31,595 nucleotides of DNA, from IMG/VR virus record IMGVR_UViG_3300008217_000040, positions 1 to 31,595 of that record. The stretch is one strand, 5' to 3'. This document shows positions 10,123-27,033 of the stretch, piece by piece (within the stretch, counting starts at the first letter, position 1; every line of letters starts with the position of its first letter). A model generated the notes under the pieces. It ran no database searches, was not told the origin of the DNA, and saw only the letters and a list, made by a program, of their open reading frames with translations. This DNA comes from a virus (taxonomy: Duplodnaviria; Caudoviricetes). The translations under genes and the position numbers were made by a program.

Positions 10123-10330
10123 CCCTAAGTCTTTGAAATTCAAGAAGTTTCTGGTCAAAACGAAATTTTACCAGTAAATATTTTGTTAACTACGCTCGCG
10201 GTTGCCAGCTTCTCTCGGCTCTTCCGTATAAGCTTTTGAATATTAAGAAGTTTATGCAGTTCAAAAATAAACGCCTGAGCTTCCACAGTCGGGATCACCA
10301 GAACATAAAAAAATAAGCGACAAGGAAAAG

Positions 10331-10369: not shown

Positions 10370-10546
10370 AGAACTTTTTCAAAAATATTTTTTTCACCTA
10401 ACTATTCAAAACTTAACAGGGGGGGGAGACATTTCTCCCTAACCGCCCACCTTTTTAAAAGTCTCCCCAAGAAAGTTATCTTTTGAAAGGTTTATGGACT
10501 GGTAAATATTTATTTACCTGAAGTAAGCAGGTACGTTTTTTCAGGC

Positions 10547-12095: not shown

Positions 12096-12134
12096 TCTCG
12101 GTCCAAAATAATATTTTACCAGTCAAAACTTTTG

Positions 12135-14895: not shown

Positions 14896-14999
14896 CCAAA
14901 CGCGCAACCTCCCGTGCGCGTTTCGCCTGCCCTCACCGAATAAATATTTACTGGTAAATAATTATTTGGAATTGGAATTCCTGCAGGTCTCATCAGTGG
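14896..14999 (-). ncRNA. Hammerhead ribozyme HH3, type I, with long stem II insertion
   Basis: CCA CUGAUGA G(A)CCUGC..insert..GCAGGC GAAA CGCGCA-CGGGAGGU-UGCGCG UU^UGG; 3-bp stem I, GUU site, begins 2 nt after the AAA stop; cut 14899/14898. Confidence 0.75.
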
Positions 15000-15001
15000 T
15001 T

Positions 15002-16108
15002 TTAAATTTCAAAAGCCTGATTGGCGATTTTGAAATCGGAATAAATAGAAGTCTCAGCAAGGTCAGGACGCTGACCAATTACCTGACGCATGAAGAAGAA
15101 CGCAAACTCATCACTTGGCATCCTTTGAATGTACGCGAGTGCGTTTTCAAAGTAGCCAGTCACTTCGCCTGCTTCGGCTTCTTTCATTGTGTGGACCAAC
15201 GCTATGCAAGTGGCGTAGTGCATTTTGTTGTCGTCAGGAATTTGGACGTTCCCGCCGTCCTTCATAATCTCCGACAGATTGGGAATGTCGTTTTGAAGCT
15301 TAACGAATGTTGCAAAATCAATCGCCGCTGCATCACCAATAGATTGTGACGTAGTGCGCTGCAAGTCGTCCTCGTTCTTAACAACTTCTGGTGCGACAAT
15401 TAATATGTCGCTAAGGCGCACCCAACTTCTTGAACTCGGTTGCTGTCCCGCAATCTTCGGATCGAAGACGTTCAAGTTTTCGGGTTGGTAAGATATGTAA
15501 CCCGTAATTAACGGGGAAACATAATTCTTCGCTGCCCAGATCAACCATTCCTTTGTGCTGGCTTCGAACTCAATAAGCTGAACCCTACTGACCACATGGG
15601 TTGGAACCTTGTTGCTACCAGCACGGTCTGTACTCCGATTTCCAGCACACACTATTCGCCAACCTGACGGGAAAATATAGGACCCAAGCCTACGCTCATG
15701 GAGCAATTGTCCAATGATGCTTTGCAACGAAGCATGAGCTTGTGCAAATTCATCCAAGAACAAAACGCCTTCACCAGACTGTGGAAGATTCTCAAGAAAT
15801 GCTCGTTGCTGAATTCCAATATCTGGGTTGTCCTTGCGGAACATGATGTGCGGCAAGCCGCCAAAATCTACCGCTTCATACAAGCCCAGTCGCACCGACA
15901 CATAGCCGAATGAACCCTTTGGGGGTGCAACAGCTAGCGGGAGGGATTCCTTGTCAGTAACGAGCTTCCGATCACCGCGAAGTATGTTCACACACACATC
16001 TACGATGGCCGACTTCCCGATACCAACTTGTCCCTCCAGATACGGCACATGGTTGGCCTTCAAACAATTGAGAATATCTTGCACTGCTTTTGTTGGATTT
16101 GTTTTCAC
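15002..16108 (-). CDS. MoxR-like AAA+ ATPase (AAA_5 type)
   Basis: Walker A GQVGIGKS, Walker B LFLDE, AGNR..DRAG, SRSW; GTG start at 16108 behind UUGGAGGU. Confidence 0.9.
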   Translation of the reverse strand: MKTNPTKAVQDILNCLKANHVPYLEGQVGIGKSAIVDVCVNILRGDRKLVTDKESLPLAVAPPKGSFGYVSVRLGLYEAVDFGGLPHIMFRKDNPDIGIQQRAFLENLPQSGEGVLFLDEFAQAHASLQSIIGQLLHERRLGSYIFPSGWRIVCAGNRSTDRAGSNKVPTHVVSRVQLIEFEASTKEWLIWAAKNYVSPLITGYISYQPENLNVFDPKIAGQQPSSRSWVRLSDILIVAPEVVKNEDDLQRTTSQSIGDAAAIDFATFVKLQNDIPNLSEIMKDGGNVQIPDDNKMHYATCIALVHTMKEAEAGEVTGYFENALAYIQRMPSDEFAFFFMRQVIGQRPDLAETSIYSDFKIANQAFEI

Positions 16109-16139: not shown

Positions 16140-16166
16140 AAAAAAACGTAACCCAAAATGGGTTAC
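16140..16166 (-). terminator. Intrinsic terminator-like hairpin between HH2 and the AAA gene
   Basis: GUAACCCA-UUU-UGGGUUAC-G-U7. Confidence 0.6.
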
Positions 16167-16263
16167 ACCAAGACGATTCAACCTTGAACAGGAAAAACTT
16201 GTTATACAAAACAAGTTTCATTACGAATCGTTTCGCTAGAGTTTCGCTAGCTCTTCAGTTGGT
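16167..16263 (-). ncRNA. Hammerhead ribozyme HH2, type I, with extended stem III
   Basis: ACCAA CUGAAGA GCUAG-CGAAACU-CUAGC GAAA CGAUUC..(9-bp inner hairpin)..GAAUCG UC^UUGGU; cut 16172/16171. Confidence 0.9.
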
Positions 16264-16270
16264 TTACAAA

Positions 16271-16504
16271 TTATGCAAAACGATTTTTGAGAAGTTTTGC
16301 CACCGCTACCCAATGTCTGGGTTCCGCGAGTGAATCAATTTCATCGTGAATCGAAATTGCACTTACAGACTCCACCAACGACATCCACTTACCTTTATTT
16401 TTAGCCTGCCGCTCAGCGCGAATGCGACACTGTTTCTTGTGTGCGCGAATCGTCTTTCGGTAGTTGGTTTGTCGGTACTTTTCTTTCAATGCTTTAGCAG
16501 TCAT
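16271..16504 (-). CDS. Small basic hypothetical protein, first gene of the operon
   Basis: UUGGAGGUGAA SD before ATG 16504. Confidence 0.75.
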   Translation of the reverse strand: MTAKALKEKYRQTNYRKTIRAHKKQCRIRAERQAKNKGKWMSLVESVSAISIHDEIDSLAEPRHWVAVAKLLKNRFA

Positions 16505-16512
16505 TTTATTCA

Positions 16513-16620
16513 CCTCCAAGTGAATTGGTTTCGATTTAAAACAAAATATTTACTAGTCAATATTTTGTTCTGGCTATCATCTTCAGGAGCTAGTCGCCAC
16601 ACTAGCTCGACCCTTGGAGG
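16513..16620 (-). ncRNA. Hammerhead ribozyme HH1, type III, stem III extension pairs with the downstream SD
   Basis: CCUCCAAG GGUC^GAGCUAGU-GUGGCG-ACUAGCUC CUGAAGA(U) GAU..12-bp helix..AUC GAAA CC AAUUCA CUUGGAGG; cut 16609/16608. Confidence 0.8.
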
Positions 16621-16742
16621 AAGGTCCCAACGTAGTCCGATTGTCTTCGCCGCTATTTTTATTCTGGCCTGATGAATTCAGATTCGACAGCGTTGGGAAT
16701 TTCTTGTTGACGTTGCATCAAAAAACTTATCCCGTCCTGCTT

Positions 16743-16961
16743 TCCCCGAGGGTACTCCTAGCAAGACTAACCGCCTGCACTGAACCCAACCAAAAGACAA
16801 GGCTTCCTTGTTGGATTTTCTGGCGGTCTTGGTTCACTTGGTGAACCTCTCCGCTCTACCCGCTACCTCTTAACTCCTGATGGAGTTCCAGCGATTTGAC
16901 TTGCGGACATTTCGAACCGTGTCATCGCGACAGTGTTGAAACAACCGCAGGCCCTCGGGGA
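16743..16961 (-). ncRNA. Candidate large multi-stem structured RNA (operon leader)
   Basis: 10-bp closing helix UCCCCGAGGG/CCCUCGGGGA enclosing four sub-domains; no convincing ORF; strand inferred from the operon. Confidence 0.55.
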
Positions 16962-17150
16962 CTGGTTTCATGATATGAGGGTTGATCCAATCAAACTTGC
17001 TGCATATCACTTCTACTAAGAATTTTAGATCAGTCAAACATCATTCGCAACATCAACTGCACACGATAGCTAAGTGCAAGCGTAGCTTTGGTTAGTGGCA
17101 CGAGATAATATTTTACTGAGCCAAAAACAATCTCAGGTTGCGCAGGAATT

Positions 17151-17636
17151 ATGGTCAAAAAACCGAAAGCAAAATTGGAAGTTGTCCCGCAGATTGATCT
17201 CACGTTAACGCAAAAGCAACGTGCATTTGTTGACGCAGTTTCGCGCGGCAAGTTGGGTAGTCACAAGGCGGCGTACGCAGAGGCGTACAGCGTTAGGCTG
17301 AACAAGAATGGTTCGATACCAAAGTGGGTAGAAGTCGAAGCCAGCAAGCTGCTAGCGACTCCTAAGATTGCACTAAGCTTGCAACGTGCATTGCAGAGGA
17401 AAGAGCACGAGTCGGTAGCATCCGCGCTTAGGATCAGGAATCACGTTATCTCACGGCTCTACACAGAGAGCACCGAAGCAGAGTCTGACGCATCGCGGGT
17501 ACGGGCACTCGAACTTCTCGGCAAGCTTGATCATGTGTCACTGTTCAGCGACAAGGTGGAGGTGCGCGAAGAGTCGAGGTCACCTGAGGAAATCGAGTCT
17601 GAGCTACACCAACGGCTGTCTGAGCTACTGGCCTGA
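17151..17636 (+). CDS. terS: Terminase small subunit (probable)
   Basis: LTQKQRAFV..AY..AY..ASKLL..PKI HTH-type N-terminus and RVRALELLGK; upstream of TerL. Confidence 0.75.
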   Translation: MVKKPKAKLEVVPQIDLTLTQKQRAFVDAVSRGKLGSHKAAYAEAYSVRLNKNGSIPKWVEVEASKLLATPKIALSLQRALQRKEHESVASALRIRNHVISRLYTESTEAESDASRVRALELLGKLDHVSLFSDKVEVREESRSPEEIESELHQRLSELLA

Positions 17637-26071: not shown

Positions 26072-26127
26072 CCCTTTTCCTGACTGTCACATCGTGTGGC
26101 AGACACTAGCCGAGACAGGAGAAAGAA

Positions 26128-27033
26128 ATGGCTAATACAACTTTCACAGGAGCAGTACGCTCCGAAAATGGTTTTAAAACCATTGATATCAATTCAACGA
26201 CAGGGGCCGTTACTGAAGGTTTTGTAATAAACAAAGACGGTAATGTCTATACTGATGATGGTGGACATATTCAGTATGCAGCAGCAACAGGATATGGGCC
26301 TGCTGACCTTATAGTCGGTAAAGGGGGGAGCCAGTACGGGACAGTTGATCCCTACACAGAAAGTTCCTCGCAACTCTTCCCTCTGGGAAGCACTCTGGTT
26401 TACGGTAATAATGTTTATCGTTATGTTGAAATAGGCGGAACAGCAGTAACTGCTGGTAAACTTCTTCAACACGCAGCAGTAGTTGCTCATCACTCTAATA
26501 TGACAGCAACAGCAGCAGTAGCAGCAGGTGAAACTGTAATATCTGTTGAAACTGGGGGTACTGACTTAACAGCTAACCAATATGCAGATGGCTATCTTTG
26601 GGTAAATGATGTGAATGGTGAAGGACAATGCCTTAGAGTAAAATCCAATCCAGCACACGATCATTCAGAGGACCCTTCTGTTGAGATTACTTGCTACGAT
26701 GATTTAGCGACTGCACTAACAACTAGCTCACAACTATCTCTAATAGAGAACCCAAATACCAACCTAATTGTTGCACCAGCAACAGAAACAGGTGCGTTGA
26801 TGGGAGCTACTGTCGTTGATATGACAGCAGACTATTATGGTTGGGCAGTTATAAAAGGACCAGCAGCACTTCTCACAGTAGGCACTTTGGTTGTAGGTAA
26901 TGCAGCAGTTCGCTCTGGCGGTACAGCAGGCGGTGTTGCACCAGCAACTGACAACGTACTACAAGAAGTTGGTGATGTAATGGCTGTATCAGCAGATACC
27001 GAGTATTCATTGATTAATATGAATTTAGGTTAG
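26128..27033 (+). CDS. Virion structural protein (head fibre/decoration-like)
   Basis: MANTTF.G.VRSENGF N-terminus, Ala/Gly/Thr-rich, follows the capsid gene. Confidence 0.7.
   Translation: MANTTFTGAVRSENGFKTIDINSTTGAVTEGFVINKDGNVYTDDGGHIQYAAATGYGPADLIVGKGGSQYGTVDPYTESSSQLFPLGSTLVYGNNVYRYVEIGGTAVTAGKLLQHAAVVAHHSNMTATAAVAAGETVISVETGGTDLTANQYADGYLWVNDVNGEGQCLRVKSNPAHDHSEDPSVEITCYDDLATALTTSSQLSLIENPNTNLIVAPATETGALMGATVVDMTADYYGWAVIKGPAALLTVGTLVVGNAAVRSGGTAGGVAPATDNVLQEVGDVMAVSADTEYSLINMNLG

Follow-up and report, generated by a model that had tools for sequence, protein, structure and literature searches.

A predicted type III hammerhead in phage early leaders carries a conserved complement to the Shine-Dalgarno sequence of the first gene

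Hammerhead ribozymes occur in clusters in phage and prophage genomes, and their function there is left open in the accessible text of Perreault et al. 2011 (PMC3088659). Likewise, the roles of bacterial hammerheads are called an open question in the available part of PMC6765202. Here, we ask what such an RNA does directly in front of a ribosome-binding site: in an uncultured phage, a hammerhead-type RNA, HH1, precedes the first gene of the early operon, and one of its arms is complementary to the Shine-Dalgarno sequence (SD) of this gene. An earlier note on this DNA had read the arrangement as a switch that turns translation on by cleavage. The window, that is, the whole stretch of 31,595 nucleotides analyzed (IMG/VR record IMGVR_UViG_3300008217_000040), encodes terminase, portal, and head genes rightward from 17151, and its leftward early operon includes genes for an ATPase, a DUF3150-like protein, and a DUF2201 protein. 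The large terminase shares 52-58% identity with those of HTVC027P, HTVC023P, 023Pt_psg01, and DSL-LC04. The features of the locus are compiled in Table 1.

Table 1. Coordinates of the HH1 locus and its surroundings in the window
Feature	Position	Strand	Remarks
Terminase small subunit gene (terS)	17151..17636	+	Divergent anchor defining orthologous leaders
Candidate sigma70-type promoter of the early (leftward) operon	17022..17050	-	Consensus match alone, 9/12
Structured leader RNA, ~390 nt	16627..17015	-	Release by cleavage predicted; putative start site; no Rfam family
Leader-closing stem, 16698-16691 with 16632-16625	16625..16698	-	2 nt in common with H0 in the window
H0, rival 6-bp hairpin	16609..16626	-	Anti-SD in loop; 3' arm is the GUC strand
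Anti-SD arm	16613..16620	-	Exact complement of SD 16520-16513
Stem III 5' strand and GUC triplet (16611-16609)	16609..16612	-	Predicted cut site
Stem I, 8 bp	16587..16608	-	Loop I 16600-16595, with UGGC 16599-16596
Core C3-A9 (16586-16580) and extra U (16579)	16579..16586	-	Extra U between A9 and G10.1
Stem II, 3 bp	16533..16578	-	Internal loop with GCCA 16574-16571 (pseudoknot partner)
Distal part of stem II	within 16533..16578	-	Long AU-rich hairpin with repeated palindrome 16562-16547
G12-A15.1 (16532-16529), stem III 3' strand (to 16527), 6-nt bulge (16526-16521)	16521..16532	-	
SD (16520-16513) with its own 6-bp hairpin	16508..16525	-	Loop complementary to H0 loop
First gene, 77 aa, basic N-terminus	16271..16504	-	No family; not conserved among relatives
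HH2, canonical type I hammerhead	16167..16263	-	Cut predicted after 16172; closes first cistron
Hairpin 3' of HH2	16145..16169	-	Terminator-like in window; A-rich tail behind it in relatives
ATPase gene	15002..16107	-	First gene in 8/70 related leaders

Judged by its sequence, HH1 is a type III hammerhead-type RNA, with self-cleavage predicted between 16609 and 16608. All bases and coordinates named in the earlier note are in place on the minus strand. The hammerhead consensus core (C3 U4 G5 A6 N7 G8 A9, G12 A13 A14 A15.1, U16.1, H17) is present, stems I and II are closed by loops, and stem III is open, with 8, 3, and 3 bp, respectively, and the 108-nt element folds with z = -4.4. The extra U after A9 recurs in relatives, and hammerheads tolerate an extra nucleotide at this place. 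An Rfam search returned no match for HH1 at E<=1, RF00008 included, which places HH1 outside that alignment, though it has the consensus core. The contact between UGGC of loop I and GCCA of stem II, suggested earlier as an activating one, is a predicted pseudoknot and covaries in relatives. A scan with the central pair left free in the pattern gave 44 loci and 37 distinct matches, and in the 36 with an intact stem I this pair is G-C in 26, C-G in 5, A-U in 4, and U-A in 1. Twenty-two of these 36 are ordinary type II hammerheads, classed as such for the absence of an anti-SD loop (the four tested all pass the RF02276 threshold); 10 carry the anti-SD/H0 module described below, and 4 are in neither class, with two of the latter (L584 and L597) carrying the module with a wobble. 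Hammerhead-like variants were also seen: one in L012 (238-340) and 60 relatives, predicted only, combines a stem I of 4 bp and an AU-rich loop I with two additional A inserted between C11.1 and G12, and a fold in the leaders of L063 and L067 has an inverted 15.1-16.1 pair and lacks an anti-SD.

As described in the earlier note, the 3-bp stem III is followed by a 6-nt bulge (16526-16521) and then by an 8-bp helix, in which the anti-SD (16620-16613) is perfectly complementary to the SD (16520-16513), located 8 nt upstream of the ATG at 16504. The anti-SD 8-mer occurs once on the minus strand and its complement five times. That reading missed two helices, H0 and the SD's own hairpin. H0 pairs the GUC strand including N17 and thus excludes the active ribozyme. 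Its 5' arm is a copy of the stem III 3' strand, and both change together, which is a strand-exchange layout. Loop complementarity between H0 and the SD hairpin extends over 5-6 nt in 66 of 71 elements, with exact hexaloop pairs in 23, and hexaloop kissing complexes can be stable. H0, the SD hairpin, and the ribozyme helices are likely to constitute a three-state switch.

The module recurs in related phages. Relatives anchored on terS were taken from the best 80 of 201 matches; six are copies of this phage with an identical HH1, and of the other 74 loci, 63 have at least 700 nt upstream of terS. Among the best 80 matches, 52 of these 63 loci have a type III hammerhead whose anti-SD lies in a hairpin loop (51 by script, L043 by eye). 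The remaining 11 comprise seven identical loci with a leader hammerhead but no anti-SD and four without a passing hammerhead. With terS sequences clustered at 95% identity and the window included, the module is present in 15 of 17 clusters, and the losses represent two clades. Since the rows are related, these counts overstate independence. A sharper comparison is offered by the hammerheads further downstream in the same genomes. When the count is restricted to distinct type III hammerheads that have an SD core no more than 40 nt away, one false positive (L355) dropped, and Watson-Crick pairs only, G-U excluded, an anti-SD of at least 5 nt is present in 42 of 43 leader hammerheads (window included), compared to 5 of 84 downstream ones and 4.7% of shuffles. 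It lies in the H0 hairpin loop in 42 of 43 and 0 of 84, respectively. Stem III measures 3-5 bp in all 43 leader hammerheads and at least 6 bp in 75 of the 84 downstream ones, and the anti-SD:SD helix skips as many as 20 bulged nt on its way to the SD. Four stem I scaffolds carry the module (61, 5, 4, and 1 of 71), and it occurs on leaders of several unrelated sequence groups. The first genes behind it belong to 32 protein families among 70, suggesting that the module is tied to the position and not to the gene; for the same reason, the first gene is not taken to be a conserved N-like antiterminator. Taken together, the sequences show the link between anti-SD and SD to be under selection.

Loose pattern scans of 120 and 125 loci returned mostly noise. 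In these scans, the type III folds were copies of this phage plus one unrelated fold, a search anchored on the ATPase retrieved five near-identical copies and nothing else, and a scan of genome contigs gave no matches, so that no host or prophage was found there. In the terminase relatives HTVC027P, HTVC023P, DSL-LC04, 023Pt_psg01, and MinM2 (26-41 kb each), no convincing hammerhead was detected; one weak match within a gene was seen among these five annotated genomes. Further placements of the anti-SD occur in single relatives. In the second-position hammerheads L071:1350-1454, L072:5317-5420, and L080:299-405, it is prepaired to an upstream purine run and not in an H0 loop, and in L407:1457-1554, a noninitiating SD-like run right behind stem III could take it, the likely real SD being ~35 nt downstream.

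The earlier note had pointed to covariation in homologous phages as a check, and the outcome differs between helices: the loop contact, H0, and stem III covary, but covariation of the SD helix is thin. All pair counts were taken on anchored positions. H0 has 22 distinct sequences among 71 elements. Its pair 5, not forced by the selection, is Watson-Crick in 50 of 53 with four pair types, compared to 17.9 in shuffles; pair 4 holds partly by construction, given that the set was selected for at least four pairs, and still has three pair types. The pair with N17 is G-C in 51, A-U in 1, and broken in 1 (n = 53). Pair 3 of stem III is paired in 52 of 53, compared to 25.3 in shuffles, and covaries. 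Among 80 distinct hammerheads, most of them retrieved with a stem I pattern that makes no demand for an anti-SD, 59 have both H0 and anti-SD, 15 have neither, and 6 have one only. For the SD helix, the core is invariant, direct covariation amounts to one compensatory pair (L337) and one wobble (L584/L597), and flanking positions perform no better than shuffles; thus, the partner in cis is inferred from the invariant match. Sequence and comparison, then, establish the three helices, their mutual exclusion, and the restriction of the module to leaders. On this comparative basis, HH1 is a real, conserved, and selected element.

Dependence of stem III on the SD and easier product release with H0 come from computation. 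Nearest-neighbor folding includes no core, pseudoknot, or kissing terms and is unstable on HH1; the precursor states are close in energy in this model, which cannot rank them. With the SD blocked in the model, the probability of H0 has medians of 0.99 and 0.94, and stem III becomes ~200-fold less probable (family median, H0-only context), consistent with the earlier proposal that a bound ribosome should prevent folding; in a 200-nt context, the decrease exceeds 10-fold in 37 of 71 elements. With the SD free, the median probability of stem III in the 200-nt context is 0.002, and activity would therefore rest on core and pseudoknot energy missing from the model. H0 is computed to weaken product binding by 3.1 kcal/mol (median), and by more than 1 kcal/mol in 65 of 71 elements (local context).

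We propose, with a confidence that puts this reading at an even chance, that HH1 is an SD-gated switch, in which cleavage needs a ribosome-free SD and then ejects the leader for good. HH1 cutting and ribosome loading are likely to be mutually exclusive. Following the order of synthesis, H0 would fold first, pair the GUC triplet, and keep the ribozyme off. Its loop would next pair with the unoccupied SD of the first gene, probably loop to loop, and the stem III 3' strand, as a copy of the H0 5' arm, would displace H0, while the SD helix would prop up stem III, which is too short to hold by itself; the helices of this step are conserved, and we infer the path between them. A 30S subunit bound at the SD would prevent this capture. 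Given the intact core, the RNA would then be cut after 16609. As computed, H0 would refold on the upstream piece and weaken the product duplex; in addition, it may pair N17 against religation and leave a blunt 3' end. As a net effect, translation of whichever gene is first would time the removal of a structured leader, and cutting would permanently strip the anti-SD from the mRNA; that cleavage leaves the anti-SD on the upstream fragment agrees with the earlier note. 5'-OH ends alter mRNA stability. The thin covariation of the SD helix, the low computed probability of stem III in the 200-nt context, and the two clades (11 of 63 loci) without the module count against SD gating.

The earlier note had instead assumed that the folded ribozyme blocks translation and that release of the leader frees the SD. 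In a strict version of this ON-switch, the precursor would be masked in both states, by the kiss or by the extended helix, and the first gene would be translated only after the cut; at the operon level, polarity could pass the control on. The complementary loops (66 of 71, 23 with exact hexaloop pairs) and the computed ease of product release with H0 speak for it, and engineered hammerheads operate in this way according to the accessible text of PMC3664830. The catalytic fold indeed masks the SD, but predictions disagree on whether the precursor is translationally silent: at 37 C, SD masking in the window is computed as 0.995 if 91 nt upstream of the cut are included, which favors the ON-switch, but as 0.21 for H0 alone and 0.04 for 200 nt. 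Across the family, the medians are 0.62 and 0.03, and in the 200-nt upstream context just 11 of 71 elements are predicted to be masked. Since H0 can sequester the anti-SD, an uncleaved precursor is not necessarily masked. Leader release, in turn, is predicted to do little to free the SD. In the window, the cost of opening the SD is 4.33 versus 4.29 kcal/mol, a gain from cleavage of 0.04, because the SD returns to a hairpin of its own once the RNA is cut; the median gain in the family is 0.64 kcal/mol, exceeding 1 in 29 of 71. Unless the precursor is masked by a kiss between the two loops, so small a gain counts against a strict ON-switch; the lack of conservation of the first gene counts against it as well. 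We consider this mode of control unlikely, if still worth serious attention, and ribosome-gated cleavage fits better.

The SD might also do no more than clamp a weak stem III, with every transcript cut fast and without regulation and H0 just releasing the leader and protecting its 3' end. This would suit an operon predicted to be cut by at least five hammerheads and a leader that resembles a structured RNA in its own right, and processing of polycistronic RNA has been proposed for clustered phage hammerheads (PMC3088659, accessible text). However, downstream hammerheads manage with adjacent stems of 6-8 bp and no anti-SD, and mere processing needs neither a variable-bulge skip to the SD nor a ribozyme-blocking hairpin; we regard it as improbable. 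Slightly less probable still is a silencer acting in trans, in which the anti-SD loop of the released leader binds SD loops of early genes and damps early translation. It draws on the abundance of the extended SD motif before early genes (125 of 172 SD-like sites before open reading frames on the early strand, compared to 5 of 43 on the late strand), on covarying SD hairpins present at 65 of 84 downstream hammerheads, and on the prediction of H0 in 45 of 71 5' cleavage products. Yet just 5-8 bp would form, an H0 piece on its own is predicted to bind only at mM concentrations, kissing terms left aside, and the SD hairpins are kept in phages without an anti-SD (L015, L063), so that they probably serve another reader. 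Finally, H0 could be a functionless relic, the leftover stem III hairpin of a type II ancestor with an inherited anti-SD match. Loop I and the GCCA tail of the window match the RF02276 consensus, and H0 is located where RF02276 places its stem III hairpin; but H0 covaries, N17 stays paired, scaffolds that lack type II features retain the hairpin, and the 22 true type II matches were so classed for their lack of an anti-SD loop. We judge a relic to be very improbable indeed.

The SD hairpin type is common to four early genes of the window and covaries. Early-gene SDs in the loops of small hairpins were noticed at 16520, 16121, 14851, 13753, and 5347 (minus strand), a motif missing from late genes. 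These hairpins are possibly the site of a translational regulator. CsrA was considered as such a regulator, but most loops do not fit the CsrA consensus. Returning to SD gating, one may speculate, as a long shot, that in a starved cell the SD is empty, HH1 cuts, and the freed leader kisses early-gene SD loops, pausing the infection until translation resumes. If true, the phage would sense host ribosome availability by means of a ribozyme.

A descriptor scan placed five hammerheads in the window, each on the early strand and predicted to cut after 16609, 16172, 13815, 12180, and 11816, respectively; Rfam detects one of them, that cutting after 11816. The four beyond HH1 (cuts after 16172, 13815, 12180, and 11816, minus strand) split the early operon into gene-sized pieces, and relatives have up to five or six hammerheads per 6 kb. 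A possible sixth in the window, of type I (15000-14896, minus strand), was read by eye and has a full core and a 7-bp stem III, together with a stem I of just 3 bp and U at N17. A near-palindromic 14-16-mer is repeated at 10167-10180, 10493-10506, 12115-12128, 14945-14960, and 16547-16562, the last copy being within HH1 stem II; 7 matches at these 5 places compare with 0.06 expected. It is also present in promoter regions of relatives and appears operator-like. Among the promoters listed by a scan of the window, none is internal to HH1 stem II. On the plus strand, a Mu-gpT-DE RNA (RF03012, 62.7 bits) is located at 26078-26130, directly behind the major head gene.

The leader upstream of the cut has a minimum free energy of -123, compared to -109+-5 for 40 shuffles. 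In relatives, an equivalent covarying stem adjoins H0, and in the largest sequence group (20 leaders), 14 of 22 predicted leader pairs have two-sided changes; the window leader is only faintly similar to this group. L024:5206-5540 and 19 related leaders represent a covarying leader RNA of 250-400 nt without an Rfam family, and at least four leader sequence groups can be told apart. No Rfam family was detected in the window leader or the 14 related loci searched, among them none that would provide HH1 with a ligand or RNA sensor domain, and no further ribozyme turned up in the leader in Rfam and descriptor scans. The leader, which is structured, could itself be a sensor domain of the switch. 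At the 5' ends of the leaders L384, L338, L033, and L015, SD-like runs precede AUA, AUU, or AUC and short frames, close to where transcription is predicted to start.

The relation of HH1 to type II hammerheads is close. Its loop I and AGCCA pseudoknot tail fit the RF02276 consensus, with the loop I/3' tail pseudoknot of type II present and a GUC-ending hairpin upstream of stem I, and the relatives L384 and L576 score 30.5 bits against this model. At the place upstream of the closed stem III hairpin where type II has G12-A13-A14, HH1 has three G (16628-16626), and none of the leaders listed has GAAA upstream of H0. As the G12-A14 segment is downstream in HH1, the active fold is type III and the upstream hairpin cannot be catalytic. 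Judging from these sequences, it is plausible that a type II ancestor gained a downstream GAAA and kept its old stem III hairpin as a regulator. The type II members L568-L611 contain purine-rich SD-like runs with GAAA close behind the pseudoknot tail, a possible route to the type III permutation.

How does HH1 compare to known systems? The clusters in the accessible text of PMC3088659 similarly have several hammerheads flanking single genes of changing identity, a loop I/II pseudoknot, and, commonly, a weak stem III; HHphage lies there 13 nt upstream of the first start codon in an early transcript of a halovirus. Unlike for HH1, neither SD pairing nor a rival hairpin is described in that part of the paper. 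In the engineered RBS-sequestering E. coli switches of PMC3664830, as far as its accessible text goes, the SD is likewise paired in an extended ribozyme stem and cleavage parts it from its mask, and to this extent the earlier comparison with engineered ON-switches stands. In those devices, however, stem I is extended and a sensor is added on stem III, whereas in HH1 the mask extends stem III and sits in a rival hairpin loop, and the SD has its own hairpin. PMC5737381, in its available part, concerns a design other than an SD-paired hammerhead. Type I hammerheads in 5' untranslated regions of fungal and plant RNA viruses have been linked to translation initiation (bioRxiv 10.1101/2024.05.16.594327, accessible part), but these are eukaryotic RNA viruses and involve no Shine-Dalgarno sequence. 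The glmS ribozyme (PMC6765202, available part) likewise occurs naturally in a bacterial 5' leader, cleaves itself, and controls expression, as HH1 with its predicted cleavage would. It differs from HH1 in its fold. glmS uses a metabolite cofactor and acts through mRNA decay, not SD pairing. A full-text literature search, with most subscription papers outside its coverage, found no natural hammerhead pairing with an SD, and in the literature found, SD-coupled ribozyme cleavage appears only as an engineered device.

The HH1 family provides a conserved, testable link of phage hammerheads to translation initiation, with controls built in: downstream hammerheads of the same genomes and two clades lack the module. 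What looks like a permutation from type II to type III, with the old stem III hairpin turned regulator, would also have yielded in H0 a compact solution to product release, as the model suggests. HH1, if confirmed, would represent a natural coupling between ribozyme cleavage and a ribosome-binding site.
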